Positions 3,564 through 58,090 of a DNA stretch of 64,000 bases are shown in pieces (the stretch's first letter is position 1; the number at the start of each line of letters is the position of its first letter). A model generated the notes under the pieces. The model had not been told where the DNA came from, searched no databases, and was given only the letters and a program-made list of their open reading frames with translations. The position numbers and the translations under genes were made by a program. Source of the stretch: Patescibacteria group bacterium (GTDB taxonomy: Bacteria > Patescibacteriota > Minisyncoccia > Phycocordibacterales > CSBR16-119). The stretch covers positions 52,383 to 116,382 of the forward strand of contig JBPOJJ010000003.1 in the NCBI GenBank assembly GCA_052033715.1. The letters are read 5' to 3'.

Positions 3564-3599
3564 ATAAGTGTTCCCTTATCTGCACAAAAGCCTTGTTTA

Positions 3600-22462: not shown

Positions 22463-22503
22463 AATCCCTGCACTGATTTGACAAATCATTAAAACTATGT
22501 AAT

Positions 22504-23970
22504 ATGGAGATACTTATGAAAATAAAATTCTTGATTTTTGTCGCACTATTCTTTTTAGTTTCGGCTAGAGCTTCGGCTGCCACGATAAATACAGGTCCAG
22601 ATTGTCCGCTTTTGGACGCTGTTATTTCGGCTCAGACAAATACCTCTTCATCGGGATGCGTTGCTGGTTTTGGGGCGGACACAATCAATATTACCCAAGA
22701 TGAAACAATTTCTTCCGAATACGATTCTTCTGGCAATTCTTTTCCTGTTATAACTGAACCTCTTACGATAAATGGAAACGGTTACACTATAATTCACGAA
22801 AATCCCGGCTTCAATCTCGTGCGCCTTTTTCAGGTTGTTGGCACAGATTTCACTTTGGATAACATTAAATTCGAACACACATACGGCTTTACTGCAGACG
22901 ACGGTGGCATGATTCACGCCACGGATTCCGTCGTTACTCTTAAGAGATCAGATTTTTCTTCCTTTAACGCGGGAGCCAAGGGCGGTGTTATTTATATACA
23001 AAATGGAAATCTTGTCATCCAAAAGAGCAATTTCAGCGGGAATTGGGCCTATGACGGTGGAGCCATATATATAGATAATGGAAACTTAAACATTCAATCA
23101 GGTAATTTTAGTGGCAATAGTTGTTGGAACGAAGGATGTGCTGTTATGACCGAGGGTCAGGTTAGCACAACTATTTCATCTTCTGTTTTTTTTCAAAACA
23201 TTGGAGCTCGGGCTGCCGCCATAAGTGCGGGCGCTAATTCAAATGGAAAATCTCTCACCGTGATAGATTCGGAATTTATAGAAAATAGTGTGATTAATGG
23301 AAATGATAGTGGTGCTGTGATTTGGAAAGGAGAAAATGGAACCGTAAAGATAACCAGGACAACCTTTTTTGGTAATCAGGGGTCAGGTTTTGGTGCAGGG
23401 TTCTACAACGAAGGAAGCTCGTCGAATGTTATTGTGATCAATTCAACGTTCTCGGATAACCACACCAATGGTCCGGGCTCGGCGATATTAAATGTTGCCG
23501 AAGGCGTCAGATTGGATGTCGCGTACAATACCTTCATCAACAATGACTCTTTCACAATTGAAGGAGCGCTTTCGATCACTGGTCCGCAGCTAGTTGATTC
23601 TGTTGTAGAAAACAATATTTTTACTAACAACGACGGCGATTGTAATTTTGCTTCTCATTTGGGAGTTAATTTTGTTAACAATCTTTCTGATGACGGAAGC
23701 TGTAGTTCTGTTGTCGCGACAAACATATCTTCAGTCCTCGCCCATAATGGCGGCCCCACTAGGACGCACGCGCTTTTGGCGGGAAGTAACGCTGTCGACA
23801 CAGCGGTGACTGATATGTTGTTGGTCCGAAACCCTTGTCCAAAAGGAGATCAAAGAATATATCCTCGAATGATCGATGGAAATAATGACGGAATTTTGAA
23901 ATGTGATATCGGAGCATACGAAAGACAAAAGAAAATCGCTCAAACTGTCCTAAAGCCATTTAGGCCGTAA
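22504..23970 (+). CDS. secreted CSLREA / beta-helix repeat protein (paralogous architecture; likely starts at MKIKF, 22516)
   Basis: Signal peptide; DCPLLDAVISA; NGN/GGA beta-helix repeats; C-terminal CDIGAYE motif; TTGACA-16-TAATAT promoter abutting the start. Confidence 0.85.
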   Translation: MEILMKIKFLIFVALFFLVSARASAATINTGPDCPLLDAVISAQTNTSSSGCVAGFGADTINITQDETISSEYDSSGNSFPVITEPLTINGNGYTIIHENPGFNLVRLFQVVGTDFTLDNIKFEHTYGFTADDGGMIHATDSVVTLKRSDFSSFNAGAKGGVIYIQNGNLVIQKSNFSGNWAYDGGAIYIDNGNLNIQSGNFSGNSCWNEGCAVMTEGQVSTTISSSVFFQNIGARAAAISAGANSNGKSLTVIDSEFIENSVINGNDSGAVIWKGENGTVKITRTTFFGNQGSGFGAGFYNEGSSSNVIVINSTFSDNHTNGPGSAILNVAEGVRLDVAYNTFINNDSFTIEGALSITGPQLVDSVVENNIFTNNDGDCNFASHLGVNFVNNLSDDGSCSSVVATNISSVLAHNGGPTRTHALLAGSNAVDTAVTDMLLVRNPCPKGDQRIYPRMIDGNNDGILKCDIGAYERQKKIAQTVLKPFRP

Positions 23971-24072
23971 AAACTCCAAACCCAGCTTTCAAATTGTTTC
24001 AATTTTTGTACGGGCCCAGTAAAATTCTTCTTCCACACTCTAAAAACAGCCTAGTCTGTTAAAATTAGATCA

Positions 24073-25983: not shown

Positions 25984-26064
25984 ATATCAAAAGGTTTACA
26001 AAAAACAAGTTTTTGTTTATAGTCTTTCGTGAACCAGGAACAAACCATATAAACCCGCAAGGTC

Positions 26065-26421
26065 ATGCACACCGCAGCAATGAAAATTCCAGTGTCTGTG
26101 CCTTTAGCCAGACCCGAGGAGGTCGAGTCCCCAACTGACCCGATGTCTCAAAGGACAAAAAGGCAAAGGCAGATCTACGACAACGGCTCCTACCAATTCA
26201 GGCACCTTATCCTTGTTGTCCTCAAAACCAACAAGAGAGGCAGGGCTGGATACGACACCACAACCCACTTTGTGCTCAGGGATTACCCAGATCTGAGGTG
26301 GGAAGAAGAGAAGGAGTTCGTGCGTGAGCTGCTCAAGAAGCACCATCCTGGACTCTATAAGCGTCTGGAGACCAATAAGTGGATATGGGTGAAGCCTGAA
26401 CCAAAGAAGAAACTCGCTTAA
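26065..26421 (+). CDS. hypothetical protein (GC-rich orphan; start uncertain)
   Basis: ~52% GC; strong terminator immediately downstream; no recognisable domain. Confidence 0.4.
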   Translation: MHTAAMKIPVSVPLARPEEVESPTDPMSQRTKRQRQIYDNGSYQFRHLILVVLKTNKRGRAGYDTTTHFVLRDYPDLRWEEEKEFVRELLKKHHPGLYKRLETNKWIWVKPEPKKKLA

Positions 26422-26437
26422 CCGTGTCCTTTCGTCG

Positions 26438-26481
26438 TAAAGCGCCCCCTGACCTCACCAGTCGGGGGCGCTTATCGTTTT
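26438..26481 (+). terminator. rho-independent terminator
   Basis: aagcgccccc...gggggcgctt long stem followed by atcgtttt. Confidence 0.6.
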
Positions 26482-26521
26482 AAATAAGGTTTTTTAAAAT
26501 TTATCTCGATAAAAAGTCGTT

Positions 26522-26603
26522 TTGACAGCCAAATCAAAAAAAGTAGAATTAACGAAAATGTTGGGGTAGATTGCTTGACAAATGAAATGTCTTGCCGTAT
26601 AAT
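26522..26603 (+). promoter_or_regulatory. two tandem sigma70-like promoters (TTGACA-16-TAGAAT and TTGACA-17-TATAAT) with ~150 nt leader
   Basis: Exact consensus hexamers at 26575-26580 / 26598-26603; weaker pair at 26522-26527 / 26544-26549. Confidence 0.5.
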
Positions 26604-26761
26604 CCCGCCATAAAGATTCGAACGTCTTTTTCGCTCGAATTTGTAAAAAAGATTGTTTGATGAGATGGGAGGCTTGAAACCTTTCGAATAATCTTGTCTG
26701 GCAACCAATGTAGTTCAATTCGTTTATTAATTTTGCGTTTATTACTAAAAAATATTTTATT

Positions 26762-29416
26762 ATGAAGAATTTTAAGATTAAAAATCTATCGAAAAGAGCG
26801 CTTCTCGGCGTCTTTGTTTTTCAGTTTGCAGTAACAACCTCTTTCGCCCCGATAATCGCGCGAGCTCAGGTGGTAACCGAAGAGATGGCCGTTGATACGG
26901 TGGAAACTGTGGCTGAACCTGTAGAAATCAGTACCTCTGAAGAAGTTGTCGTAGAAGAAACAACTACAGACGTACCTGAAGGCGAAACAACAACTCCTTC
27001 CGGTGAGGAAACCACCGAACCAGAGGCAAAGACCGAAGAAAAGTCATTTTCTGTTGTTGGTGGCGGCGGACACGATCCCGTTGATATCTGCCACGCAGCC
27101 GGCCAGAGCGGTAATTACATTTTTCTTACAGTCGACGACGATGGTGCATACGGAGGACATGGCGGTCATGAAAATGACATCTTGCCAATTACTGATGTCA
27201 ATGGTGACAGGGAAATCAATCAAGCCGATTGTGATTATCAGGCTCCGGAAGAAGAATCTTGCGATGCTTCAATAAACCTATTTGATAACTCGGGATTTGA
27301 AAATCCGGTTCTTCCTGGATCTTGGAACATCTATGCTGATGGAACATCTGGTTTGGCTTGGGATGTCGAGTGGCAAGCTGGCTCTGGCGACAACACTCCT
27401 GCCAAAGCCGAATTGCAACAGATCTACACTGCTCACTCTGGCGAACAATATTTAGAACTAGATTCTGATTTTGATGGACCAGGGGGATCAATTTCAAACG
27501 AAGAAGCTTCTACTCGAATCTCCCAAACTATTACGACTGTTCCTGGACAAGAATACGAAATCTCATACTTCTATTCTGCTCGACCTGGATATGGATACGA
27601 TGACAACAAGGTTGGTCTATATATTGATGGGTTCCCTTGGGATCTTTCTGTAACGACTAATGGCGTTGGTGACTCAGATACTTTTTGGGCACAGAAATTC
27701 AATCATTTTACAGCTGATAGCACTTCTCACACGATAACTTTTGCTGATCTTGGAACAGCTAATTCTTTTGGAATGTTTCTAGATGATATGCGTGTAAATT
27801 GTGTCGAAGAAGATGGCGGTGGTGACGACGACAAGAATACTCCTCCAGACATTGATGTCGTTCCAGAAATTATCGAAGTTTTCATCGGTTCAGTTTGTGA
27901 CGAAGCGCTTATAATGGGTGGCGTTACGGCTGATGACCTTGAAGACGGTAATCTAACAAATGAAATCGAATATGCTGGAACTGTCAATTGTAATGTTCTG
28001 GGCGACTATCCAGTGACTTACAATGTCGAAGATTCCGAAGGGCTCCCAGCCGAAGAGGAAACTCGTATTATTCGCGTTGTAAATAATGACGACGAAGAAG
28101 AAAATCCTTCTTGTGATTCACAGGCAATTTGGGCTCGAGTCGTCGTTACTTCATACTCAAATGTCGGTGCGGGTGATATGACCAACACTATCTACCTCGG
28201 TTCTTCGATCAACACTGTCACTACAGGAGAATGGTTCCCGGTTTCTCCGGCAGATGTTCAGAATATAGAAAACTTCGCGGACGTATCAGGACTCGCTGTT
28301 AAAAGACGAGTAGACAACAAGATCGTTCTTGAACTTCACGGAAGTCATCTTCCAAAAGGAACTGGTAAGGAATACGCCGATGGGTATATTGAATTCTTTA
28401 ATGCTGTACCAAGCGTTCTTGTGGGTGCAACTGGTCAGAATAAACTAGAACTCAATGGAGATAATGAAATTGGCCACCAGGATATTGTTTGGATTGATGG
28501 AGATAAGGCAAATTTCAATCTCGGAGTCGGGACAGCCGATGATCGATTCTCTACAACCTATACATATTCTCTAGACGAAGAGTGCGATGACGATGGCGGT
28601 GGAGACAATAACAATCCTCCGGCTATCGTTTTGGCTGACGAGTGTATCCTTTGGTCAGAAGAATCTTTCAATTTCACATCTGGCGTTACAACATCAGATG
28701 CTGACGGAGATACAGTTAACCTTACTTACGTAGTTAGCCCTGATCCAATAGTTTTTGGTCAAGATGGAACTTATACAATCACTTATACTGCTGATGACGG
28801 AGAAGACACCACGGTCGTCTCAAAGACTCTAACCATTGATGAAGATTGTGAAGAGGACAATGGGGGTGGCGGAGGTGATGACGAAGAGGACAATGGCGGC
28901 GGAGGCGGTGGAGGTAGTTCAGGAAGTATTCTTGGCGGCGGAGGTTCAAACAGACAAGGTGAAGTCTTGGGTGCCACAACTGCGGCTTGTGCACAATTCA
29001 CTCAGTATCACGATACTGGAAGTACTCAGAGCGAAGTCAGAGCTCTCCAGACATTCCTAAACGAATACATGGATGCGGGACTTACAGTGAACGGAACTTA
29101 CGACTGGGCAACGACTCAGGCAATACATGACTTCCAGGCTTTGCACTGGGATGCCATCATCAAACCATGGCTTGGTTCACCAAGTAAAATCAGTCCGAAC
29201 ACAACTGGCCGAACCCGACAGACGACAACTCAGGCTTTGAACTTCATCATCAACTGTCCAAATGATGCCATGTATCTAGAAGATCCTCAGATTTTCTACA
29301 AACTTACTGAAATCAAAAACAAAAAAGAATTTTCCGCGGATCAAATTATGAAGATAACGAATATCTTGGATGAAGTTCACGGAATAGTTCTCGGAGCTGA
29401 GGCAATGGAAAAATAA
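26762..29416 (+). CDS. large secreted protein with five parts: acidic Thr/Glu-rich linker; Cys/His N-module plus jelly-roll-like domain; two Ig-like (DUF5011-like) domains; Gly-rich linker; C-terminal peptidoglycan-binding-like domain
   Basis: Signal peptide; VDICHAAG...H..H motif; LFDNSGFENPV...FLDDMRVNCVEE; TADDLEDGNLT; GGGGG runs; ALQTFLNEY...DGTYDWATTQAIHDFQ. Confidence 0.85.
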   Translation: MKNFKIKNLSKRALLGVFVFQFAVTTSFAPIIARAQVVTEEMAVDTVETVAEPVEISTSEEVVVEETTTDVPEGETTTPSGEETTEPEAKTEEKSFSVVGGGGHDPVDICHAAGQSGNYIFLTVDDDGAYGGHGGHENDILPITDVNGDREINQADCDYQAPEEESCDASINLFDNSGFENPVLPGSWNIYADGTSGLAWDVEWQAGSGDNTPAKAELQQIYTAHSGEQYLELDSDFDGPGGSISNEEASTRISQTITTVPGQEYEISYFYSARPGYGYDDNKVGLYIDGFPWDLSVTTNGVGDSDTFWAQKFNHFTADSTSHTITFADLGTANSFGMFLDDMRVNCVEEDGGGDDDKNTPPDIDVVPEIIEVFIGSVCDEALIMGGVTADDLEDGNLTNEIEYAGTVNCNVLGDYPVTYNVEDSEGLPAEEETRIIRVVNNDDEEENPSCDSQAIWARVVVTSYSNVGAGDMTNTIYLGSSINTVTTGEWFPVSPADVQNIENFADVSGLAVKRRVDNKIVLELHGSHLPKGTGKEYADGYIEFFNAVPSVLVGATGQNKLELNGDNEIGHQDIVWIDGDKANFNLGVGTADDRFSTTYTYSLDEECDDDGGGDNNNPPAIVLADECILWSEESFNFTSGVTTSDADGDTVNLTYVVSPDPIVFGQDGTYTITYTADDGEDTTVVSKTLTIDEDCEEDNGGGGGDDEEDNGGGGGGGSSGSILGGGGSNRQGEVLGATTAACAQFTQYHDTGSTQSEVRALQTFLNEYMDAGLTVNGTYDWATTQAIHDFQALHWDAIIKPWLGSPSKISPNTTGRTRQTTTQALNFIINCPNDAMYLEDPQIFYKLTEIKNKKEFSADQIMKITNILDEVHGIVLGAEAMEK

Positions 29417-29430
29417 TAAATTAAAAGAAA

Positions 29431-29470
29431 GAGAAAATCCCCCGCGTCTGACGTGGGGGATTTTCTCTTG
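29431..29470 (+). terminator. strong rho-independent terminator
   Basis: gagaaaatcccccgcg-tctga-cgtgggggattttctc. Confidence 0.65.
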
Positions 29471-29486
29471 CTCCTATCATAAACAC

Positions 29487-29495
29487 TGGTATAAT
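29487..29495 (+). promoter_or_regulatory. extended -10 element TGGTATAAT
   Basis: TGnTATAAT match ~20 nt upstream of the 29516 start. Confidence 0.4.
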
Positions 29496-29515
29496 TTAAC
29501 CAAGTCAAATATTTC

Positions 29516-30019
29516 ATGCAAACTCAAAGCTTCCATCGAAGTAAATACAATATCTGTTGGATCTCCGTACTGGTGATCTTTGTCGGTACGATTATTTATC
29601 CGATTAGTTTTGAGCGCGCAGATAAAAAAAGCCATACTCCTGTCGTCCAGTCTGTCACGCCGACTTTTTCGTTTCCGACAGTAGAAGTTACTCCAATAAG
29701 AAATTATCCAACCACTGTCAAAACTGAAACCATAAAACCGGTAACTTCATCCAAACTAATTTTTACTCGCGATCTGAAAATAGGGGACAAGGGCCCAGAC
29801 GTGAAAAAACTTCAGCAATATTTGAATCAGCGCGGATTTATCGTAGCAACCTCTGGTAATGGTTCTCCGGGACAAGAAAGTGAATTATTCGGTCCAGGAA
29901 CACAAAACGCACTCAAGCGTTTTCAGGAAAGTTATGCAGAGATACTTCTCAAGCCCTACGGATTATCAGAAGGGACGGGATTTTTCGGGGAAGTTACGCG
30001 AAAATTCGTTAATTCATAA
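29516..30019 (+). CDS. membrane-anchored protein with peptidoglycan-binding-like domain
   Basis: N-terminal TM; GDKGPDVKKLQQYLNQRGF...FGPGTQNALKRFQ. Confidence 0.7.
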   Translation: MQTQSFHRSKYNICWISVLVIFVGTIIYPISFERADKKSHTPVVQSVTPTFSFPTVEVTPIRNYPTTVKTETIKPVTSSKLIFTRDLKIGDKGPDVKKLQQYLNQRGFIVATSGNGSPGQESELFGPGTQNALKRFQESYAEILLKPYGLSEGTGFFGEVTRKFVNS

Positions 30020-30029
30020 AGATTATTTC

Positions 30030-31253
30030 ATGAAGGATTTTCTAAAAATTTTAGTTGTTATGTCGATAATCTGCCCGACATTTCTGTTGGCGCAGACACC
30101 CACTGTTCCAGACGCTCCTTTGAATTTACTGGGTCGTTCGGCAGCTAAAGAAATTTACGTTCAGTGGGATGTTCCATTAAGTGACGGCGGTTCAGCCATA
30201 GACGGATATAACTTAAATTACAGAGAAGGGAATAGCGGTGTCTGGATGTCGTCGTTTACAACACTGACAAACTATACACTATCGAGTTTGACACAGAACA
30301 CAGAGTATCAGATTTTTGTCACGGCGGTTAATATCGTAGGAGAAAGTCGGCCGTCGGAAACCATAAACATACAGCTTGGCCCGTTTGATGAAGAAGATAC
30401 GGTGTCCCCGGTTGTAGTTGGAGAGATTGTCGTATCAAATATTTCCAACGATGGAGCGACAATTACTTGGACCACAGACGAACCGACCACCTCGGCAATT
30501 TATTATGATGTTCATCGCGAAGATCAACATGGTCTTGTTATCGGTGCAACATTAACGACCGAACATCAGATTGATTTGTCGGGGCTGATTTCTTGCTCAG
30601 AGTATTTCTTTGTTGTTGGAGGAGAAGATGCGAGCGAAAATTTTTACACGAGTAGCGTAGAAGAATTTGAAACATCTGGTTGTGTTGGGCAAGTTACATC
30701 CCAGGATGTTGGAGATCTTGTTCCGCCAGATAGTGTGAATACGTTTTCTTTTGAAAATGCCAAAGTTGAAATCGTTGCTGGTCCTGGAATAGTCGATCGA
30801 GATGCTGTATTTCAAGTAAAAAGATTGAGTGTCTCTTCTGTTGACGGAGAAGTGGGTTGTCCAGTCGATGCAAAACCACTGGGAGAGAATATTTATGACA
30901 TAAAACTCTTAGATAATTATGATTCTGTGGCGAGTATTCGAGAACCCGTCACCGTAACGATAGATTATGGCGATGAGGACATAGATAATATAAAAGAAGA
31001 AAGCTTGTCACTCTATCATTATGCCGAAGGTGTGGGTTGGCAAAAACTAAATTCTTGCTCGGTAAACAAAGAAGAGAAAAAAATAACTTGTGAGGTTCAG
31101 AATTTCTCAAAATTTATGGTTGCCGTAGAAGAAAATTGTGATTCAGAACAAAATAACTGGTTTTTTTCTAAATTTGATTCGTTTTTTTCCAAAATAGACC
31201 ATAAAATAAAGACTTTTTTCTGGGGAAAGATAATGGGCATGAAGGTATTTTAG
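30030..31253 (+). CDS. secreted fibronectin-type-III repeat protein
   Basis: Signal peptide MKDFLKILVVMSIICPTFLLAQT; FN3-like segments (PDAPLNL...YQIFVTAVN; ATITWTTDEPTTSAIYY); start reassigned from overlapping ORF. Confidence 0.75.
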   Translation: MKDFLKILVVMSIICPTFLLAQTPTVPDAPLNLLGRSAAKEIYVQWDVPLSDGGSAIDGYNLNYREGNSGVWMSSFTTLTNYTLSSLTQNTEYQIFVTAVNIVGESRPSETINIQLGPFDEEDTVSPVVVGEIVVSNISNDGATITWTTDEPTTSAIYYDVHREDQHGLVIGATLTTEHQIDLSGLISCSEYFFVVGGEDASENFYTSSVEEFETSGCVGQVTSQDVGDLVPPDSVNTFSFENAKVEIVAGPGIVDRDAVFQVKRLSVSSVDGEVGCPVDAKPLGENIYDIKLLDNYDSVASIREPVTVTIDYGDEDIDNIKEESLSLYHYAEGVGWQKLNSCSVNKEEKKITCEVQNFSKFMVAVEENCDSEQNNWFFSKFDSFFSKIDHKIKTFFWGKIMGMKVF

Positions 31254-31287
31254 TCCTTGATTTTTAAATCTTTCATGTTATAATATA

Positions 31288-32352
31288 GTGGTGAAAAAAA
31301 CCTTAAAGAAATATTTTATCCCACACGCGGAGAATGAACACAAACCGCATATTTTGCGCGAACGCGCCGTTTTGTCGATAGCACTTGTCGTCGTCGTGCT
31401 CTTTGCGGCCTCAGTCCTCGGTACTTATGCGGTAAAAAATATAAAATTTTTGGCCGCCATCCAATCAGCTTTTCTTGTCGATCTGGCCAATGAAGACCGT
31501 GCCGATCTTGGCCTCAAACAACTTGCCATAAACGATAAACTTGTAAATGCCGCTACCCTCAAAGCCGCCGACATGGCCGAAAAAAGTTATTTTGCACACA
31601 TCAGTCCAGAAGGTAGAACGCCTTGGTACTGGATTCAGCAAGCTGGCTACACATACATTTATGCCGGCGAAAATTTGGCTGTGAATTTCGATGACTCGGA
31701 AGATGTCGAGCGCGCTTGGATGAATTCACCTACTCACAAGGCGAACATTTTAAATAATAGATACACCGAAATCGGCATCTCGACCGCCGTTGGAACCTAT
31801 AAGGGCAAAAAGACAACTTTTGTCGTCCAGATGTTTGGTACCCCGAGGAAATCAGTGATCAGTAATATTGAAACAAGCTTATCTCCGAGGGTTGCCGAGG
31901 CCTCAGAGACTAGACCCGCAATAAACCCTGAAAGCAACACCGCTTCTATAGTGGTCGTAAAGGTTCCGGAAGAAGAACCTGTTCCAGAAGCTATTGTCAC
32001 GGCCCAGGAAGCTACTTCTGTAGAGGAAGGAAATTTTATGTCTTTCACCAATCCAGAAGTATCTCCCGAAGAACTTGCTCAAGTCGAAGAAGTGGATAGT
32101 ACCGATCAAAAAGTAACTTATACTAATTGGTTCGAGCGCGTCCTTGTGTCGCCTTCGGTTGTAGTTAAAAATATCTATTTCGTTCTTGTCGCCCTCATAA
32201 TTTTCTCTCTGATATTGAAAATATTTATCGAGATTCGTCTTCAACATCCAAGGAATATTGCTTATGGAGTAATACTACTTGCCATAATACTAATTTTTAT
32301 GTATTTAAATTCTAGCGTGGGACCCGCTACCACCATTGTCGTCGCATCTTAG
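31288..32352 (+). CDS. CAP/SCP (YkwD-like) domain protein with N- and C-terminal TM helices (GTG start)
   Basis: YFAHISPEG...AWMNSPTHKANILNNRYTEIGIS CAP signature. Confidence 0.75.
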   Translation: MVKKTLKKYFIPHAENEHKPHILRERAVLSIALVVVVLFAASVLGTYAVKNIKFLAAIQSAFLVDLANEDRADLGLKQLAINDKLVNAATLKAADMAEKSYFAHISPEGRTPWYWIQQAGYTYIYAGENLAVNFDDSEDVERAWMNSPTHKANILNNRYTEIGISTAVGTYKGKKTTFVVQMFGTPRKSVISNIETSLSPRVAEASETRPAINPESNTASIVVVKVPEEEPVPEAIVTAQEATSVEEGNFMSFTNPEVSPEELAQVEEVDSTDQKVTYTNWFERVLVSPSVVVKNIYFVLVALIIFSLILKIFIEIRLQHPRNIAYGVILLAIILIFMYLNSSVGPATTIVVAS

Positions 32353-32479
32353 GATAATTGAAATAAGGCCTTGTTTTTTGCGTCATAAGGGGTAGACTAG
32401 TAATGATTTTATTGGTCTTTTTAAGGGCCAATTTTAAGGGGTTTTACTAAGTAGATTATCATTAAAAAATAAGAACATT

Positions 32480-33886
32480 ATGAAAAATATTTTATCAAAA
32501 GGTTTTGGGGTATTGGTTATGTTTGCGATGACTTTCAACGTCGCCTTGGCCACACCCTCTTCGCAAATTACTATTTGTCATTTTCCACCAGGAAATCCTA
32601 ATAATCCGCAGACGATAACCATAAGCGCTAATTCCTGGAACGCGCATCAGTCGCACGGTGATTATCAGGGAGAATGCGAGGGGGAAGAAAATATTCCGGT
32701 TTGTGATATCGAAGAAAATTTGATTTACAACGGTGGTTTCGAGTCTCCGGTCGTAACGGCTGGTCAGGGCTGGGATGTTTATCCAAACGGCACTGCTGGA
32801 CTTGGATGGAGTGTCGCTTGGAACGGGGTTTTTGCTGGTGCACCGGCCGTAGCAAATCTTGAACTTCATCGGGGGGTGAATGCTTGGGTGCATGATGAGG
32901 GTATGCAGCATGCAGAACTTGATACTGACTGGGTTGCCGGAGGTTCAGAACAAGCATCAGTTGTAATTTCTCAAGACATCGCAACGATACCCGGAGCAAC
33001 ATATGAATTGTCTTATGCATTCTCTCCACGACCAGGAACCGGAGCCGCAGAAAATGTTTTAGAAGTTTTGGTTGATGGATCACTCGTCCAAACCCAAGGT
33101 CCTGTTGCTGGAGGAGGAAATACATCTTGGACAACACATACTTACAATTTTGTTGCAGATGGTTCGACAACAACGATTGCTCTACGAGATGCCGGAACAC
33201 CGAATACACTTGGAACTTTCCTTGACGACGTTTCTGTTCGATGTGTCGAAGAACCAGAAGAATGCGAATTGTTGTATGCTCGCATTAGAACTGCTGAACG
33301 TGGGTGGTGGAACAATTGGGGGACTGGAAATTTGGGCGCCTGGAATACAAAGGGTGTAGCCAATCCTCCGGTTTATGTTGGAGGAAATAATCTTCTACAC
33401 AATTCTCTTGGCGGAGACGGTTACACATCACAAGAATGGTTCCCGCTCGTCGATGAAGAAACTTGTGAAGCAATTGTTGATGAAGAATTCAACTTTGACC
33501 TTCCTGGTCTTGCCGTTCAAAGACTTGACGGATCACTTCGAGTTGTCCTTTACGGATCACATGACGCTGGTGAAGATCCAGCACGTCTTCTGAATCGAGA
33601 GTTCGCAAGAGGATACATTGAACTTTCAAAAGACATGGTTACGAAATTGACGGGGGCATGGGACAAGTCAAACGGTTGGGTTGATCCAGTGGATACCTAC
33701 ACTCGTATTCATGATCCTCTTGTAAATGATGCTGCTAATCCAATGGATGCACGCGGTTCATTTAATGGCTCTATTCACATACACCATCCACTCTATGATA
33801 ATGTAAAGGTTTTGGGCGATTTGTTTAGATTCCATCTCGTTGTTACTACTGGAAATGATGGATTCTACGCAAAATACAATAACTAA
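32480..33886 (+). CDS. secreted protein paralogous to the N-terminal half of the 26762 gene product (Cys/His module plus jelly-roll-like domain)
   Basis: Signal peptide; ITICHFPPGNPNNP...H..HGD; LIYNGGFESPV...FLDDVSVRCVEE. Confidence 0.8.
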   Translation: MKNILSKGFGVLVMFAMTFNVALATPSSQITICHFPPGNPNNPQTITISANSWNAHQSHGDYQGECEGEENIPVCDIEENLIYNGGFESPVVTAGQGWDVYPNGTAGLGWSVAWNGVFAGAPAVANLELHRGVNAWVHDEGMQHAELDTDWVAGGSEQASVVISQDIATIPGATYELSYAFSPRPGTGAAENVLEVLVDGSLVQTQGPVAGGGNTSWTTHTYNFVADGSTTTIALRDAGTPNTLGTFLDDVSVRCVEEPEECELLYARIRTAERGWWNNWGTGNLGAWNTKGVANPPVYVGGNNLLHNSLGGDGYTSQEWFPLVDEETCEAIVDEEFNFDLPGLAVQRLDGSLRVVLYGSHDAGEDPARLLNREFARGYIELSKDMVTKLTGAWDKSNGWVDPVDTYTRIHDPLVNDAANPMDARGSFNGSIHIHHPLYDNVKVLGDLFRFHLVVTTGNDGFYAKYNN

Positions 33887-33970: not shown

Positions 33971-35794
33971 ATGGCAGATACTTACGACCACAAATCCATC
34001 GAAGCTAAATGGCGAGAAATATGGGCCAAAGACGGGATTTACAAGACTTCCGAATCTTTCTCCAAACCTAAAAAATATGTTCTTGATATGTACCCTTATC
34101 CGTCCGGAGAGGGTCTTCATGTCGGTCATCCAAAAGGCTATATTGCTACCGACGTTTACGCGCGAATGTCGCGTATGCAGGGCTTTAATGTTCTTCATCC
34201 AATGGGCTGGGATGCCTTTGGACTTCCAGCCGAACAATTTGCGCTCAAAAATAAGGTACATCCGAAAATTTCTGTTGCCAAAAATATTGCACGTTACAAA
34301 GAACAGCTTCAAATGGTTGGGCTTGATTACGATTGGTCGCGAGAGATAAATACAACGGATTCGGAATATTATAAATGGACACAATGGTGTTTCGTCAAAA
34401 TGTTTGAAAAAGGTTTAGTCTATCAGTCTAATGAACCGATTAATTGGTGTCCTTCTTGTAAAACCGGTCTTGCAAACGAAGACTTAGAGGATGGTAAATG
34501 TGAACGATGCGGATCAGAAATTGAACAGAAGCCTTTGGCCCAGTGGGTTATTCGCATCACCGATTATCGTGATCGCTTGGTTGAAGATTTAAATTTACTT
34601 CCAAAATGGCCGGAGTATGTTAAAACAAGCCAGAAAAATTGGTTGGCCAATCTTCGCGACTGGGTTTTTGCCAGACAGCGTTATTGGGGTGAGCCAATAC
34701 CCCTTATTCACTGTGAGAAATGTGGAACTGTCGCCGTGCCAGAAAAAGATTTACCAGTCAGACTTCCAGAAGTTGTCAATTACGAACCAACTGGCACGGG
34801 CGAGTCGCCGCTTGCTGGGATAACAGATTGGGTGAATACAACTTGTCCGAAGTGTGACGGAGTAGCCAAGCGTGAGACAAACACGATGCCACAATGGGCG
34901 GGCAGTTCTTGGTATTACTTGCGTTACATGGATCCGAAAAATTCTGATGCCATTGTCGACAAAGAAAAAGAAAAATATTGGAACAGTGTTGATGTGTATG
35001 TCGGGGGCATGGAACACGCAACTAGACATCTCATATATGCTCGTTTTTGGCACAAATTCCTTTATGACATTGGAGTCGTGTCGACCAAAGAACCATTCGA
35101 GGAACTTCACACCGTAGGGCTTATCCAGGCCTCTGATGGACGCAAGATGTCCAAACGTTGGGGCAATGTTGTCAATCCAGACGAGATGGTGGAACGTTTT
35201 GGCGCCGACGCATTTCGACTTTATGAAATGTTTATGGGGCCATTTGAACAATCAGTTGCTTGGAATACCGATGGAGTCGTCGGCACAAAAAGATTTTTAG
35301 AGAGGGTTTGGAAGATGAGAGAAAATCTTAGTGACTCGAACGAGGAAAATCACACAAACCTTCAAAAGATGATAAAAAAAGTCGGTGAAGATATCGTTAA
35401 CTTCAAATTTAATACGGCCGTTTCAACCATGATGATTTTTTTAAATTCTTCATCCGATATTTCTGCTTTAGATTATAAAGATTTTATAAAAATTCTTGCA
35501 CCGTTTGCACCGCATTTGACCGAAGAAATCTGGTATGGGCTTGGCGAAACAGAATCAATTCACGTATCAGATTGGCCACGATACGACGAATCAAAAATCA
35601 AAGACGACAAAGTAAAAATCGTTATACAGGTTAATGGCAAGCTCCGTGACGAGATAGAAGTTGATGTTGGAACTTCTGAAGACGAGGTGAAAAGTCTTGT
35701 TTTAGCGCGAGAAAAAGTTGTAGAGAAAATCGCTGGAGCATCAATCAAGAAATTTATCTATATCGAGAACAAGCTCGCTAATATCGTCATCTAA
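33971..35794 (+). CDS. leuS: leucyl-tRNA synthetase, CP1 editing domain absent
   Basis: HVGH (GLHVGHPKGY), zinc knuckle, KMSKR; sequence runs from NWLANLRDW directly into FARQRYWGEPIP with no ~190-aa CP1 insert; 607 aa. Confidence 0.9.
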   Translation: MADTYDHKSIEAKWREIWAKDGIYKTSESFSKPKKYVLDMYPYPSGEGLHVGHPKGYIATDVYARMSRMQGFNVLHPMGWDAFGLPAEQFALKNKVHPKISVAKNIARYKEQLQMVGLDYDWSREINTTDSEYYKWTQWCFVKMFEKGLVYQSNEPINWCPSCKTGLANEDLEDGKCERCGSEIEQKPLAQWVIRITDYRDRLVEDLNLLPKWPEYVKTSQKNWLANLRDWVFARQRYWGEPIPLIHCEKCGTVAVPEKDLPVRLPEVVNYEPTGTGESPLAGITDWVNTTCPKCDGVAKRETNTMPQWAGSSWYYLRYMDPKNSDAIVDKEKEKYWNSVDVYVGGMEHATRHLIYARFWHKFLYDIGVVSTKEPFEELHTVGLIQASDGRKMSKRWGNVVNPDEMVERFGADAFRLYEMFMGPFEQSVAWNTDGVVGTKRFLERVWKMRENLSDSNEENHTNLQKMIKKVGEDIVNFKFNTAVSTMMIFLNSSSDISALDYKDFIKILAPFAPHLTEEIWYGLGETESIHVSDWPRYDESKIKDDKVKIVIQVNGKLRDEIEVDVGTSEDEVKSLVLAREKVVEKIAGASIKKFIYIENKLANIVI

Positions 35795-45552: not shown

Positions 45553-45870
45553 TTGATCATGGCAGAGTTCGTCAAAGTGCATGGCTTTCGGCCCAGAGGC
45601 CGCGACCAACAACATGACTATTTCCCCGCATCCGACAGGCGAGGGGAAAACCCCATCCTTGATGGGAAGATCGTCCAGGTGCACGAAGTAGGCGGCCCAA
45701 AGACGGTGCATGCGAACATCACTTTCGAGGTTCGCCGGTATGGCAATGGACATGTCGAGCTTTGGCTTACGGACGCAGAAGCTCGCGGCAGAACAGCTTG
45801 GTGGATGAATAAGCCACTCTCCAACACTGAGCTCGATCGTCTGCGTTTCGATCTTTCTAACCTGGATTGA
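45553..45870 (+). CDS. hypothetical protein, first gene of the GC-rich islet
   Basis: GC-rich coding region; hairpin plus T-run terminator 45893-45930. Confidence 0.35.
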   Translation: MIMAEFVKVHGFRPRGRDQQHDYFPASDRRGENPILDGKIVQVHEVGGPKTVHANITFEVRRYGNGHVELWLTDAEARGRTAWWMNKPLSNTELDRLRFDLSNLD

Positions 45871-45892
45871 TCATGATCATCCCAACATCCGT

Positions 45893-45930
45893 CAGGCGCA
45901 ATTCGAAAGAACGGCGCCTTTCGCTTTTTA
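45893..45930 (+). terminator. candidate terminator
   Basis: aggcgc...gcgcct hairpin followed by ttcgctttttt. Confidence 0.45.
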
Positions 45931-46005
45931 ATTTAGTTTCTTAATGATTTTCCAATTTTCTCCCGACGCCTCTCTACTAGTCTTGCACTACTTAGCTTTA
46001 TTCGT

Positions 46006-46024
46006 GCTGCGGGACTAGGACTCG
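46006..46024. repeat. 19 bp direct repeat of the tRNA-Gln 3' end (att-like core)
   Basis: gctgcgggactaggactcg identical at 46006-46024 and at the tRNA 3' end (46190-46208). Confidence 0.6.
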
Positions 46025-46191
46025 GTCACAAATCACTAAGTCTTTTATTTCGCTTCGCTCATAAAATCCAAAGTGTTCGCGACCCCGTCTCGGCACTTCA
46101 TCCTGCTTTGGCAGGCGTGCCTGCGATCTTCTCGTCCTTCAGAAACAGTCATGTAAATTTTGCTGGAATAGCCCAGACAAAATTTTCATAG

Positions 46192-46262
46192 CTGCGGGAC
46201 TAGGACTCGAACCTAGATACCCAGGACCAAAACCTGGTGTCCTACCATTAGACGATCCCGCA
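46192..46262 (-). tRNA. tRNA-Gln (anticodon UUG), U1:A72, discriminator G73, no encoded CCA
   Basis: Reverse complement TGCGGGA...CCAGG-TTTTGGT-CCTGG...CTAGG-TTCGAGT-CCTAG-TCCCGCA-G cloverleaf. Confidence 0.88.
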
Positions 46263-46362
46263 ATTCGTTTATTTTGCCTCAAAATTATCTTTTAATCAAG
46301 AAAAAAGTAACTCTTGCCAAAAACTGTTTCAGGGCGTAGATTGAATACGAAAAACAACACTG

Positions 46363-46827
46363 ATGCCCAAACCAAACAGCCCAGGTTATGTCGTGGTTTC
46401 TTTCCTTGAGGATGAACCACCGCGTTTTTTCCTAAAGGGTGATTGGCCACTTCATGTGACCATCGCGCCACCTTTCGTCTTCTCGAGGGACTTTCAGAAG
46501 CTCGTCTTTCTGCTCGAAGAGGTCTCAGTTGGCCTAGCCCCATTTCGGACAGTCGGAATTCGTCGCGATCTATTCGGCAAGAACAAGGACGTGCCGGTCA
46601 CGTTGGTCGAAAGCGTTCCTTCGCTGGTGACCTTGAACAGGAAATTCATTGGAACTGCTTCATTGTGGGTCGAGTTTCGAGGGATAGATCACGGAGGGTA
46701 TCGGCCGCATGTTTCAGATCAGTTGTGTGGAAGACTGGACGTCGGGCAATCGATCATACTCGGCTCTGTCTCGCTAGTCGAGATGCGGCGAGACGAACGT
46801 CGTATTGCTCACACACTGGTGTTCTGA
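46363..46827 (+). CDS. 2H phosphoesterase superfamily protein (LigT / 2'-5' RNA ligase-like)
   Basis: Two H-x-T/S-x motifs (PLHVTIAPPF and YRPHVSDQL) about 90 aa apart. Confidence 0.5.
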   Translation: MPKPNSPGYVVVSFLEDEPPRFFLKGDWPLHVTIAPPFVFSRDFQKLVFLLEEVSVGLAPFRTVGIRRDLFGKNKDVPVTLVESVPSLVTLNRKFIGTASLWVEFRGIDHGGYRPHVSDQLCGRLDVGQSIILGSVSLVEMRRDERRIAHTLVF

Positions 46828-46844
46828 TTGTCCGCTCGCATCAA

Positions 46845-46890
46845 GGTAGCCCCGCCGTATTCTCGGCGGGGCTTCCGTGTTTTATGCAAG
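46845..46890 (+). terminator. rho-independent terminator
   Basis: agccccgccg-tattct-cggcggggct then tccgtgtttt. Confidence 0.6.
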
Positions 46891-46943
46891 CTAATTTCCG
46901 CGCACAATGTTACACTGAAATTAAACGAACACAGGACATAAAC

Positions 46944-47996
46944 ATGGCACAGCCATCAACATCAGCAGCATTTCTCAAAGACCTGGAAGATTGTCGAGCC
47001 TCGCTCGTCAGCAACAGGTACGGCAACACAAGCCTTTACATCAAGGGCTTGGTACTCGCAGCAGCATTTGTCGTTTGCTGGAGCACACTCGTATTCTTCT
47101 TGCCCGAGCATTCGCTTCTTGCGATTGCTCCCGGCATGGCGCTCGGTTTCGTGATTGCACTCCTTGGCTTCAACGTCTTCCACGACGTCGGCCACGGTAG
47201 CTTCTTCAGAACTCCGAGAATGAACAAGCGCATGCATTGGCCTCTCGGAGTATTCCTGGGCGCAAGCATCCTCGTTTGGAATCCGCAGCACAACTTGCAT
47301 CATCGACATCCGAACAGCGAGACTGATACGGACATCGATGTGCCGGGAGTGAGAATGCATCCGGGACAGCCATGGAAGTGGTATCACCGCTTCCAAGCTT
47401 TCTATGCGCCTCTCATCTACTCGCTCGGATACTTCGCATGGATCTGGCGAGACCTACGCCGGTCTATGGCAAACCGTGTCGGAACTGTCGAGATCGGTAT
47501 GAAGCCGAGAGACAAAGTAGAGCTTTGGATTCAGAAGGTGCTCTACATCGGTCTCGTTATTACTCCCATCGTTGTGGTGAATGGAGCGGCGGCGATTGTG
47601 CCACTGGTAGCGATGTATCTGACGGCCGGCATCGTGCTCGCGATTGTATTCCAGTGCGCGCACGTTGTTGAGGTGAGTGAATTCCCGAACGCAGAACGAA
47701 TGGGGGAGATTGATAATGCGGAGCATCAACTACGCACGACCGTCGACTTCAGCACCGGGAATAACTTGTCGAGCCGGGTGTTTCGATGGTTTGTCGGAGG
47801 TCTCAATTTCCAGGTGCTTCATCATTTGCGCCCGGACATCAGTCACGTACATTACGCCAAGCTTCATGGACCAGTCCAGAAGCTCACCGCCAAGTACGGT
47901 TTGCCTTACCGACAGATGTCGTACCTCCAAGCTCTTTGGTCACACCTCACGACCCTTTATCGCAATGGAAGGAAACCTTCCGTCCTTGCGGTGTGA
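46944..47996 (+). CDS. membrane fatty-acid desaturase family protein
   Basis: Three His boxes HDVGH, HNLHHRH, QVLHH with multiple TM helices; SD AGGA 6 nt upstream of ATG; ORF-track N-terminal extension rejected. Confidence 0.85.
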   Translation: MAQPSTSAAFLKDLEDCRASLVSNRYGNTSLYIKGLVLAAAFVVCWSTLVFFLPEHSLLAIAPGMALGFVIALLGFNVFHDVGHGSFFRTPRMNKRMHWPLGVFLGASILVWNPQHNLHHRHPNSETDTDIDVPGVRMHPGQPWKWYHRFQAFYAPLIYSLGYFAWIWRDLRRSMANRVGTVEIGMKPRDKVELWIQKVLYIGLVITPIVVVNGAAAIVPLVAMYLTAGIVLAIVFQCAHVVEVSEFPNAERMGEIDNAEHQLRTTVDFSTGNNLSSRVFRWFVGGLNFQVLHHLRPDISHVHYAKLHGPVQKLTAKYGLPYRQMSYLQALWSHLTTLYRNGRKPSVLAV

Positions 47997-48002
47997 AGTA
48001 AC

Positions 48003-48045
48003 GCGGCCCTGTCATAGAGCAGGGCCGCTCTTCTTTTTAAATATA
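48003..48045 (+). terminator. terminator of the desaturase gene
   Basis: gcggccctg-tcatagag-cagggccgc then tcttcttttt. Confidence 0.6.
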
Positions 48046-48047
48046 AA

Positions 48048-48085
48048 AATGAAGAAGCCCCGCCAAGGCGGGGCTTCCGTTCGAA
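48048..48085 (-). terminator. terminator of the 48091-48498 gene
   Basis: gaagccccgcc-aag-ggcggggcttc perfect 11 bp stem; T-run on the minus strand. Confidence 0.6.
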
Positions 48086-48090
48086 CAGGC

Positions 48091-48498
48091 TCATGCTTGG
48101 CCTGCAAGCTCTCGTTCGCAGAGCTTGATCCATTCGTCCATGTTCTGGTCGATGTAGGCGACACCAATGTAGGCGCACCGATCAGTGATCGCGGGGATGA
48201 GTTTGGTCCAGCCTATGAACAAATCAACCTCGTCCTTCATCGTCATGACGCTTTTTCCAGCATGGTTTTGCTTGAGGTGTTCGAGTATCTGCGGGAGCAG
48301 GGGCCTGCCGATCTTCTTGAGCTCTTGACGAGCTTTGGAGCGATCGAATTTCTTGTTCGGCGACATGTTATTCTTGGCCAACATGTCTTTTTCGAACTGC
48401 AAAATCAGGGCAAGGTGTTCAGGCACGGGAGTTATTGGGAGCATGGTGGTGGAGTTGGGTTCGGTCAAGATATTACGATAAAAATGCGGTAGCGTCAA
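48091..48498 (-). CDS. hypothetical protein (GC-rich islet)
   Basis: Protein-like ORF with own terminator; no recognised domain. Confidence 0.5.
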   Translation of the reverse strand: MTLPHFYRNILTEPNSTTMLPITPVPEHLALILQFEKDMLAKNNMSPNKKFDRSKARQELKKIGRPLLPQILEHLKQNHAGKSVMTMKDEVDLFIGWTKLIPAITDRCAYIGVAYIDQNMDEWIKLCERELAGQA

Positions 48499-48600
48499 AT
48501 AAATTTTTTAGCTATTCTCATTTAGGCTGACGCCGCCGCACGTTAGGCTTTGATGAAAGAATAATTTATAAATTAATAAATAACTTTGTGAAAAGTGAGA

Positions 48601-48632
48601 AGGCCACCGCGTAACGGTGGCCTTCGTCATCC
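48601..48632 (-). terminator. terminator of the 48645-49250 gene
   Basis: aaggccaccg-cgtaa-cggtggcctt perfect 10 bp stem. Confidence 0.55.
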
Positions 48633-48644
48633 AAAGGATCTTCG

Positions 48645-49250
48645 TCAATTCACTCCAGCTACTCTGCGACGTTCTCGAAGCAATTCAGCATCTCCTGGGT
48701 GGTTTAGTTCACAGAGTTGGTCACCTTCCACCGGTTCGGGGTGTGGGCCCTCGATCGGGGTGTCTTTGGTCCGAGGCTCTTCTTCACACAGCTGATCTCC
48801 CAAGGCCTTCTTGGTAAGCTCGGCGATCAACCTCTGGGCTGAAAACCTAGACCGAAGAGCACCAACAACCCCTTTGTCCTCGAGTCGACCATTGATGTAG
48901 TTGAGCCGGTGGTCAACAACTCGGAATTTCTCTCGGACGTAATCCTTGGAACGTTTGGCGGCCCGGGTGAAAAGGTGGTTGATCATGGACCACAGAAGGA
49001 GGAGTAACCCTCCCGCTATGATAATCGGCCAGCCGTTCTTGGAACCCAGAACATTGTGATTCAAATACAGGCCCAAGGTCAGGCACGCGCAGAAGATCAA
49101 CATCACCAGAAGCATGTACCAGGGGTTGTCTCGTACACGCTTCTTGAGCCAGGGGCCGGTCTCTGTCTGGATGTACAGTTCGATATCCATCCTGTCCTTC
49201 CGTTCTTGCCGGTTTTCGTTCTTGTGTTCTTGATGTGTCGTGGTTGTCAT
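48645..49250 (-). CDS. hypothetical two-TM membrane protein (start trimmed to MTTTTHQ)
   Basis: Two hydrophobic helices, charged tail; GC-rich. Confidence 0.5.
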   Translation of the reverse strand: MTTTTHQEHKNENRQERKDRMDIELYIQTETGPWLKKRVRDNPWYMLLVMLIFCACLTLGLYLNHNVLGSKNGWPIIIAGGLLLLLWSMINHLFTRAAKRSKDYVREKFRVVDHRLNYINGRLEDKGVVGALRSRFSAQRLIAELTKKALGDQLCEEEPRTKDTPIEGPHPEPVEGDQLCELNHPGDAELLRERRRVAGVN

Positions 49251-49403
49251 GGTGGTGGAATTGGTGATTTTTAGGGAGCGGGTTTCGTCAGACCTCTTTT
49301 TACACCAAAAACGGCTTTTGGTCAACCTGGGCTTTGCAATCAATGGAAAATAATGTATAGTGTTAGCCCATCCCACCTCGGGATTTATTTTTTCTCAAAT
49401 CAT

Positions 49404-56713: not shown

Positions 56714-57418
56714 ATGGAACAAATAAACATCATCACTTCATTTTTGGCAGGAATCTTTATGTTCTTGGCGCCGTGCACGCTTCCGTTGGTGCCGGGATTT
56801 GTCGCTTTTATCTCAGCCGGGGATCGATCAAAAGCAGTTAGAAATTCAGCATTGTTTTGTCTCGGATTTTTGATTACATTTCTAGTGTTTGGAATTTTGG
56901 CTGGAATTTTGGGACACGTGTTGTTGCCATACAAAATCATCCTTCAGAAGATTGGCGGACTTTTTATAATCTTCTTCGGGCTTTACATAATGGGACTTTT
57001 CCGGTTACCGTTTTTTGAGCAGAACTTTTCTCCGGCGCTTTTCCAGAAAATTTTGAAACACAAATATTCACCATTTATTTTTGGCGTGTCTTTTGCCTGT
57101 GGTTGGACGCCGTGCGTGGGGCCAGTGTTGGCCGGGATATTTTTCTACGCCGCCTTTAGTTTCAGCGTCCTGAAGGCGCTGTGGCTTTTCTTGTTCTTTG
57201 CGCTTGGATTTATCGTCCCGTTTTTGATCATTTCAGTTCTAGTCAAAAGAGGCAAGAATTTGTCTCTGCGCTCTTCTCGCTGGTTTTCTTTTCTCGCAGG
57301 AGTCTTGCTGATATTTGTTGGAGTATTGTTATTCGTAGACAACTTTAATGCGCTGTCTGTTTGGGCCTACAAACTATTTCAATTCTTAAATTACGAAGGA
57401 ATAAATAATTTACTTTAG
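56714..57418 (+). CDS. ccdA: cytochrome c-type biogenesis / thiol-disulfide transporter CcdA (DsbD core)
   Basis: Six TM; Cys motifs APCTLPL and CGWTPCVGP. Confidence 0.8.
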   Translation: MEQINIITSFLAGIFMFLAPCTLPLVPGFVAFISAGDRSKAVRNSALFCLGFLITFLVFGILAGILGHVLLPYKIILQKIGGLFIIFFGLYIMGLFRLPFFEQNFSPALFQKILKHKYSPFIFGVSFACGWTPCVGPVLAGIFFYAAFSFSVLKALWLFLFFALGFIVPFLIISVLVKRGKNLSLRSSRWFSFLAGVLLIFVGVLLFVDNFNALSVWAYKLFQFLNYEGINNLL

Positions 57419-58090
57419 TTTCTTTTTAGGTGTTTCTGGTGTTTTTATCTCGAGGCCTGGAATAATAGTCGGGATAAATTCTCCTATGCGGCGCAACCAG
57501 CTTATAAAATTTTTCTGAATATATCTAAGTACGACGATAGTGAAAACAATAAGCAGGCCAGTTAACAAATAATTTTTAAATCGGCCTACGCCTTCGGTGA
57601 TGATTTCAATCTGTTTGTGGAAATGATGTCCGAGTCCAAGAAAAATGTTTACATAGATAACCAGAGCCAAAAAATTATGCGTTAAAAAAGTCTTACGGTC
57701 GACTTTCAAGTACCCAGACATAACTGGTCCGATAAAACGCAAATAAACCAGAAATCTAGAAAAGAAAATAATCTTTTTGATATGTCGGCGAGTGTAGCCC
57801 TCGTTCTTTAGAAGACCTCTTTTTTGAAGTCTTTTAATAAATCCTCGAACTAGTCGACTGCCGCGTAAAGTTAAGCTGTATAGAGCGTAGTCTGAAATCA
57901 TTAGCCCTAAAATGAAAATACCCATAACCATTGGATACATAAATAATCCATTTCCTGACAAATATCCCATTACGACCAGAATCAGTTCTTCTGGAACCGG
58001 AATGAACATGTTTGATAACATAGCCAAAATAAGGACTCCAAAATAAGAAAGTCCTCCCAAAGAAGCTATTATGGCGTTTGAATCTTCCAT
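57410..58090 (-). CDS. DedA / SNARE-associated family membrane protein
   Basis: DedA signature ...FIPVPEELILVVMGYL... Confidence 0.85.
   Translation of the reverse strand: MEDSNAIIASLGGLSYFGVLILAMLSNMFIPVPEELILVVMGYLSGNGLFMYPMVMGIFILGLMISDYALYSLTLRGSRLVRGFIKRLQKRGLLKNEGYTRRHIKKIIFFSRFLVYLRFIGPVMSGYLKVDRKTFLTHNFLALVIYVNIFLGLGHHFHKQIEIITEGVGRFKNYLLTGLLIVFTIVVLRYIQKNFISWLRRIGEFIPTIIPGLEIKTPETPKKKLK

Follow-up and report, generated by a model that had tools for sequence, protein, structure and literature searches.

Front-end desaturases have been described as having, typically, three histidine boxes of the form HXXXH, HXXHH and QXXHH (PMC5215697). The prokaryotic enzymes of this group carry no cytochrome b5 domain (PMC4728637, PMC5037126), the delta-6 desaturase of the cyanobacterium Synechocystis being one example (PMC4728637). 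Here we describe a gene for a predicted membrane fatty-acid desaturase on a stretch of 64,000 nucleotides from contig JBPOJJ010000003.1 of a Patescibacteria group bacterium; this whole stretch is referred to as the window. Bacteria of the Candidate Phyla Radiation (CPR, Patescibacteria) are believed to assemble their membranes from lipids of the host, and the extent of their lipid modification is largely uncharted. According to published reports, Saccharibacteria cannot synthesise fatty acids but encode enzymes for lipid interconversion, and there is aerobic potential in some members from soil (PMC6031116, PMC10939385). Given this reported lack of fatty-acid synthesis, the reduced genome that an earlier note on this DNA had assumed is a reasonable premise.

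Among the described enzymes, Des of Bacillus subtilis (NCBIfam NF052548) is, like the window protein, a stand-alone membrane desaturase. It works on existing phospholipids and serves here as a functional model for a possible mode of action of the window protein. It is not known to have a QXXHH third box. Its grouping with methyl-end-type enzymes and its topology of six helices (PMC5037126) set it apart from the window protein. The mammalian stearoyl-CoA desaturase SCD1 and the alkane monooxygenase AlkB resemble the window protein in general architecture and in having a di-metal centre coordinated by histidines, but AlkB differs in helix number and chemistry. The beta-carotene ketolase CrtW belongs to the same Pfam superfamily; its match to the window protein is weak and N-terminal (residues 31–154 only), and its third box reads HXXHH instead of QXXHH.

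The window protein belongs to a separate, strongly supported clade. Its nearest relatives outside this clade are 30–41% identical over more than 90% of the length and resemble it in size (about 350 amino acids), in having PF00487 as their only domain and in their two hydrophobic hairpins. Their HX3H, HX2HH and QX2HH boxes are identically spaced, and the equivalents of H240, H301 and H334 are kept. They differ in the surroundings of the boxes, retaining Q[VI]EHHLFP and HNxxHHxYTN where the clade has QVLHHLRP and HNLHHRHPN, and, unlike them, the window protein sits in a host reported to lack fatty-acid synthesis.

Family membership, fold and active site of the desaturase

The gene and its expression signals were mapped as follows (window coordinates).

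46944–47996, plus strand: desaturase coding sequence, 350 amino acids (open reading frame translated without stops, Pfam match, alignment, AlphaFold2 model)
47181–47195, plus strand: first histidine box HDVGH, residues 80–84
47289–47309, plus strand: second histidine box HNLHHRH, residues 116–122
47811–47825, plus strand: third histidine box QVLHH, residues 290–294
46933–46936, plus strand: Shine-Dalgarno motif AGGA, 7 nt 5' of the desaturase ATG
46848–46873, plus strand: terminator-like hairpin of 10 bp, 9 of them GC, followed by a T-run; it closes the upstream gene and insulates the desaturase
48003–48028, plus strand: terminator-like hairpin directly 3' of the desaturase stop codon, part of the block shared with locus L006 (see below)

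The three histidine boxes and the good Shine-Dalgarno sequence noted earlier were thus found in place. Since terminator-like hairpins stand on both sides, the desaturase gene looks monocistronic. Its N-terminus, MAQP(S/G)TS, is kept in relatives, and about 57 nt 5' of the ATG are conserved with L001, L007 and L027, three of the related loci considered below.

Pfam PF00487 (FA_desaturase) matched residues 58–324 and covered profile positions 3–251 of 253. With an E-value of 5.7e-33 and 115.2 bits against a gathering cut-off of 29.7, the match is far beyond chance. We aligned the window protein with 17 relatives (18 sequences). In this alignment the columns of H80, H84, H116, H119, H120, H240, Q290, H293 and H294 are invariant, and so are those of H301 and H334. 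The boxes are therefore spaced as in the FA_desaturase family and not in the aberrant way against which the earlier note had cautioned.

Hydropathy analysis showed two hydrophobic hairpins, at residues ~31–80 and ~194–245, consistent with four transmembrane helices and boxes on one membrane face, presumably the cytoplasmic one. An AlphaFold2 model built on the family alignment (mean predicted local distance difference test score 90.6, predicted template-modelling score 0.89) has long helices at residues 29–51, 57–84 and 188–240. The significant fold matches in the PDB were two chains of the Chlamydomonas Ycf2/Orf2971-FtsHi motor complexes (template-modelling score 0.64–0.65) and AlkB, a membrane di-iron alkane monooxygenase (8f6t; score 0.46, probability 1.00), only, and SCD1 was absent from them. 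The fold search returns generic membrane di-iron relatives and says nothing on the substrate.

The third box has the QXXHH form of the front-end enzymes. An N-terminal cytochrome b5 domain was not found, PF00487 being the sole Pfam domain of the protein; this leaves the prokaryotic front-end subgroup possible, as its members normally lack that domain. With its metal ligands conserved, the protein possesses all sequence and structural hallmarks of an active membrane di-iron desaturase, and di-iron catalysis dependent on O2 and an electron donor is predicted.

The top curated match in NCBIfam was the Bacillus delta-5 DesA model NF052548 (E-value 6e-13), at 48.6 bits against an equivalog cut-off of 500. 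None of the equivalogs fits, with DesA, DesB, CrtW and CrtR all far under their cut-offs, so that regioselectivity and substrate are not transferable from a characterised enzyme.

Composition, inheritance and distribution of the gene

The gene lies in a GC-rich islet, as had been claimed before. Five consecutive open reading frames (ORFs) at 45553–49376 (3.8 kb) have a GC content of 0.505–0.544 and a GC content at third codon positions (GC3) of 0.555–0.662, against 0.429 +/- 0.023 and 0.419 +/- 0.044, respectively, in the other 42 window ORFs. The GC3 of the desaturase, 0.62, is about 4.6 standard deviations above the rest of the window, and its contrast in GC to the surroundings is repeated in L001, L006, L007, L026, L028 and L029.

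The closest GTDB genome is L007 (metagenome-assembled genome CAZSFS01), which is labelled Candidatus Saccharibacteria and has the same gene order. Flanking proteins of the window and L007 are 64–96% identical; judged from gene order and these identities, the window genome is Saccharibacteria-like. In L001–L005 (JGI, Logan), L007 and L027 the desaturase stands directly beside tRNA-Gln(UUG). Downstream of it, L001–L004 and L007 have a convergent ORF of 115 amino acids and then bipA. The order in the relatives is thus dnaX, tRNA-Gln, desaturase, orf115, bipA, on independently assembled contigs from JGI, Logan and GTDB. At least three related lineages hold the desaturase at this tRNA-Gln/bipA locus, with proteins 80–83% identical to that of the window. 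Three GC-rich insertions peculiar to its lineage set the window apart from this order: orf105, the ORF resembling 2H-phosphoesterases and an unrelated ORF with hydrophobic stretches.

Among six desaturase copies the ratio of nonsynonymous to synonymous substitution rates (dN/dS) was 0.04–0.22, while synonymous divergence (dS) ranged from 0.05 to saturation. Between window and L007, dS was 0.89 for the desaturase and 1.06–1.80 for eight flanking housekeeping genes. The shared locus, the neighbour-like dS and the low dN/dS indicate that the gene was already in the common ancestor and has been kept by selection. On these data the desaturase would be an older horizontal transfer, vertically inherited since within a narrow Saccharibacteria lineage, and not a recent arrival. 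The earlier idea of an acquired desaturase agrees with the foreign composition, with the qualification that the acquisition is not recent. Lineage-typical composition, which would have spoken for a native gene, was not found, but vertical inheritance within the lineage does hold.

L006 shares with the window only the gene and about 40 nt on each side. There it lies next to mraY-ftsW-murG-gltX in a dcw cluster, and this different neighbourhood points to mobility of the cassette. We also noticed in L006 (8934–9848) a divergent FabH/KAS III-like ORF with 57–68 bits on NCBIfam fabH models, whose cut-offs are 249–292. It has a GC content of 0.56, is co-oriented with the desaturase and has visible Cys, His and Asn motifs. 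The two could be a small lipid-related two-gene module; among the loci fetched, L006 alone has the FabH-like neighbour, and the window lacks it.

Close homologues (70–83% identity) occur in few clusters only, P0001–P0006. An exact look-up of the window protein itself gave no record. An exhaustive HMMER search of 1.84 billion representative proteins returned 3510 family members, a single cluster of which exceeded 50% identity; the next matches were P0126 (43%) and P0127 (39%). In 5.8 billion proteins the clade comprises about seven clusters at 90% identity. All sequences outside it are at most 41% identical to the window desaturase. In a neighbour-joining tree the window protein, P0002–P0005, P0007, P0008, P0126 and P0127 form a clade with 100% bootstrap support, to which the tree gives no resolved sister group, and in a profile search the scores fall sharply, from 472 to 281 bits, outside the clade. 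A scan of metagenome contigs with the clade profile gave no further close members (best 39%).

The clade occurs on Saccharibacteria contigs, on Pacebacteria-like contigs and on further short contigs, always with atypical composition; in GTDB only a single Saccharibacteria species representative was found to carry the gene. Genes of the P0126 type lie on AT-rich contigs (GC about 0.35), where the desaturase is GC-richer than its surroundings, and the DnaE of these contigs has Candidatus Pacebacteria as its top named match (62% identity). In this Pacebacteria-like sister subclade a FMN-reductase/Flavodoxin_2 gene divergently adjoins the desaturase (L031, 912–2686); such a gene is also found two genes from the desaturase in L029 (126–3153). 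It is a plausible candidate for the electron donor.

The nearest cultured relatives outside the clade are Bacteroidota, 32–36% identical, and some of these genes are plasmid-borne. We also considered an actinobacterial host as donor, which the data do not support; since homologues there are only 24–25% identical, it is no evident source. No desaturase relatives were detected in a scan of viral contigs, and phage GenBank records contained only DesA3-like genes of 24% identity. A literature search for desaturases in Saccharibacteria, CPR and Patescibacteria found no relevant report, its matches being carotenoid desaturases and gut-microbiome papers.

Proposed role and competing explanations

With slightly better than even confidence we take O2-dependent desaturation of lipid acyl chains to be the function of this gene. 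In the proposed course of events, the ancestor of a narrow Saccharibacteria lineage would have gained the desaturase cassette by horizontal transfer, and the cassette would then have been inherited vertically under purifying selection. The product would be an integral-membrane, O2-dependent di-iron acyl-chain desaturase without fused cytochrome b5, which would put a double bond into the acyl chains of host-derived lipids or fatty acids; desaturation would be expected rather than hydroxylation. Its substrate could be intact phospholipids, following the acyl-lipid model of Bacillus, or activated fatty acids. Electrons may come from a separately encoded donor of the flavodoxin, ferredoxin or flavin-reductase type, and membrane fluidity may be tuned in this way in oxic, possibly cold, habitats. 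Desaturation of host acyl chains is the most economical role because the lineage is reported to lack fatty-acid synthesis.

A wider proposal is made only tentatively and is rather doubtful: a CPR-specific desaturase clade, exchanged among Saccharimonadia and Pacebacteria-like episymbionts for which a lack of fatty-acid synthesis is reported, that oxidatively remodels host lipids in oxic habitats. Within it, QVLHHLRP might stand for a new regioselectivity or head-group specificity, and the stable high GC3 might reflect continuing gene flow in a CPR-wide mobile gene pool.

The protein is a divergent, fresh member of a well-known desaturase family in an unusual host; as the enzyme family is well known, the interest is ecological and physiological, not mechanistic. 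The wider proposal would give CPR bacteria their first proposed O2-dependent step of lipid tailoring. The desaturase would offer a cloneable candidate for lipid remodelling and a marker of oxic or cold adaptation.

Several observations weigh against desaturation of host-derived acyl chains by a gene acquired once. A characterised close relative does not appear to exist among the sequences compared, and no PDB chain matched by sequence at E <= 1 in a family-profile search. The replacement of Q[VI]EHHLFP by QVLHHLRP around the third box means that chemistry or regioselectivity may differ; around the second box HNLHHRHPN likewise replaces HNxxHHxYTN. The 64-kb window holds no ferredoxin or flavodoxin, and no other redox partner, lipid-uptake or activation gene. 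That the host lacks fab and pls genes and has a ferredoxin or flavodoxin is an assumption taken from the phylum. In L007 an in-frame stop (Y32*, 10094–10096) interrupts a desaturase that is otherwise intact and 98% identical to that of L001. This stop is either a recent pseudogene mutation or a sequencing error; unless it is the latter, the desaturase is dispensable in at least one population. Finally, GC3 is about 0.60–0.62 in five copies (window, L001, L006, L026, L027), against a host GC3 of 0.38–0.44. Polarised lineage-specific synonymous changes show only a mild excess of GC>AT (30) over AT>GC (19) and give no clear sign of amelioration. One old transfer followed by neutral amelioration fits poorly with a GC3 that has not drifted despite a dS of about 0.9. 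The high GC3 may be due to ongoing exchange between related lineages or to selection that acts on synonymous sites.

The protein could also belong to the same di-iron superfamily and have another chemistry or substrate than membrane glycerolipid desaturation, acting as a hydroxylase, an acetylenase, a JamB-like carrier-bound desaturase, a sphingoid or lipid-tail modifier, or a carotenoid ketolase or hydroxylase. Such a function is unlikely in our judgement, though deserving of serious weight. PF00487 includes ketolases and alkane monooxygenases (PMC5037126), QXXHH is also present in bacterial polyyne/JamB-type desaturases that work on chains bound to acyl carrier protein (PMC9828172), and some Saccharibacteria are reported to carry carotenoid genes (PMC9948471). 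Beside the third box the EHHLFP signature is lost in the clade, and in L006 the divergent FabH-like condensing enzyme, equally GC-rich, lies 152 nt 5' of the desaturase. However, this neighbour is found at one locus only, and no gene for an acyl carrier protein, ligase or thioesterase is adjacent. The ketolase that the earlier note had offered as an alternative is a weak candidate: the CrtW model (NF045690) gave 19.5 bits where its cut-off is 350. The NCBIfam scan had no match to an alkane-hydroxylase model at E <= 0.01. The large group of relatives that comes nearest is annotated as acyl-CoA or linoleoyl-CoA desaturase, although these names are automatic.

Synteny in at least three lineages, a dS near that of the neighbours and a GC3 that stays at about 0.62 in all copies without strong AT drift would also suit an ordinary vertical component of the Saccharibacteria lineage, whose composition is due to gene-specific constraints. 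We regard this as quite improbable, since the gene is spread very patchily (about seven clusters at 90% identity) and a high GC3 is common to the five islet ORFs, the unrelated window-specific ones among them. In addition, the cassette alone recurs in the other context of L006, and a Pacebacteria-like CPR host also has the gene of this clade, there too GC-richer than its surroundings. The stop at codon 32 in L007 and the lack of partner genes close by would be expected of functionless cargo, left over from a transferred island and now decaying; with dN/dS at 0.04–0.22 over deep synonymous divergence, intact metal-binding residues throughout and a conserved ribosome-binding site and terminator, there is very little to recommend this view. 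The abrupt shift in composition could in principle mark a GC-rich foreign fragment joined to a Saccharibacteria contig during assembly or binning. The junctions between tRNA-Gln and desaturase and from the desaturase through orf115 to bipA, however, recur in independent assemblies, samples and pipelines (L001–L005, L007, L027) with flanks 78–95% identical at the nucleotide level, and we therefore give practically no credence to an artefact.

Neighbouring elements and other window content

The elements next to the desaturase are the following.

45553–45870, plus strand: orf105, GC-rich, function unassigned; window-specific insertion between dnaX and the att-like repeat
46006–46024, plus strand: att-like scar, a perfect 19-nt copy of the tRNA-Gln 3' end (46191–46209), recognised by sequence identity
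46191–46262, minus strand: tRNA-Gln(UUG), which directly adjoins the desaturase in L001, L007 and L027
46363–46827, plus strand: 2H-phosphoesterase/LigT-like ORF, GC-rich, 154 amino acids (PF13563 at 24 bits, below cut-off)
48091–48498, minus strand: orf135, convergent, GC-rich, function unassigned; 69% identical to the 115-amino-acid ORF of L001–L005 and L007
48645–49253, minus strand: GC-rich ORF with hydrophobic stretches, listed as 243 amino acids from a GTG at 49376 and likely 202 amino acids long

Peculiar to the window is the insertion of the 2H-phosphoesterase/LigT-like ORF that separates tRNA-Gln from the desaturase. Both this ORF and orf105 are absent from L001, L007 and L027, and these two window-specific ORFs show that small insertions have occurred repeatedly at the tRNA-Gln/bipA locus. 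The sole neighbour conserved together with the desaturase is orf135. For the ORF listed with 243 amino acids the ATG at 49253 is the probable start, because its first 35 codons overlap the conserved bipA leader. Homology of this ORF to the one at its position in L001 was ruled out, as the N-terminal likeness is that of the bipA leader. No integrase or transposase was found, and PHROGs searches with all islet ORFs and their partners gave no meaningful match.

The 19-nt copy lies 185 nt from tRNA-Gln and forms, with a 166-nt spacer, a unit of about 190 nt. We located this unit at 46006–46209 in the window, at 3413–3601 and 9621–9824 in L001 and at 9621–9824 in L007. Between genomes it is 94–95% conserved, with coding flanks only 78–83% identical, and its spacer has no match in Rfam. 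Its appearance is that of an att site and a hot spot of integration. A direct repeat of tRNA-Gln as the boundary of a desaturase island was considered and rejected, since the two stand on opposite sides of the tRNA, the repeat 3' and the desaturase 5' of it. In L001 a third repeat copy brackets a 6.2-kb insertion with genes for a multicopper oxidase, ArsR, class I ribonucleotide reductase and PNPOx. The tRNA-Gln/bipA locus is thus of interest as a hot spot that gathers accessory genes in small genomes. Pfam identified in this insertion a class I ribonucleotide reductase small subunit, a multicopper oxidase and a PNPOx-like protein, families that we take to be oxygen-using enzymes. This set fits an oxic lifestyle.

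Besides the islet the window encodes EF-Ts, S2, MreBC, Tgt, UvrABC, Ddl, MurJ, TopA, DprA, SerS and Dus, a short DnaX, BipA, a MacB-type ATP-binding cassette system, a penicillin-binding protein and a run of large surface proteins. The earlier observation that lipid-biosynthesis genes are missing here was reproduced: no fab, acc or pls gene is present among the window ORFs, although 64 kb say little on the whole genome. The sole other window gene that is possibly lipid-related, at 57410–58090 on the minus strand, has a VTT-domain match of 31.7 bits against a Pfam cut-off of 33.9. The VTT domain presumably marks a membrane protein family of the DedA type, linked to lipid flipping.

At 33971–35794 we noticed a class I aminoacyl-tRNA synthetase (tRNA-synt_1 and Anticodon_1 domains) which, at 607 amino acids, is short for Ile, Leu or Val enzymes. 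At 19463–33886 lie, in a row, seven large co-oriented ORFs with PG_binding_1, fn3, CAP, Ig-like, beta-helix and DUF642 domains; their products are probably secreted or exposed at the surface and may have a part in host attachment.

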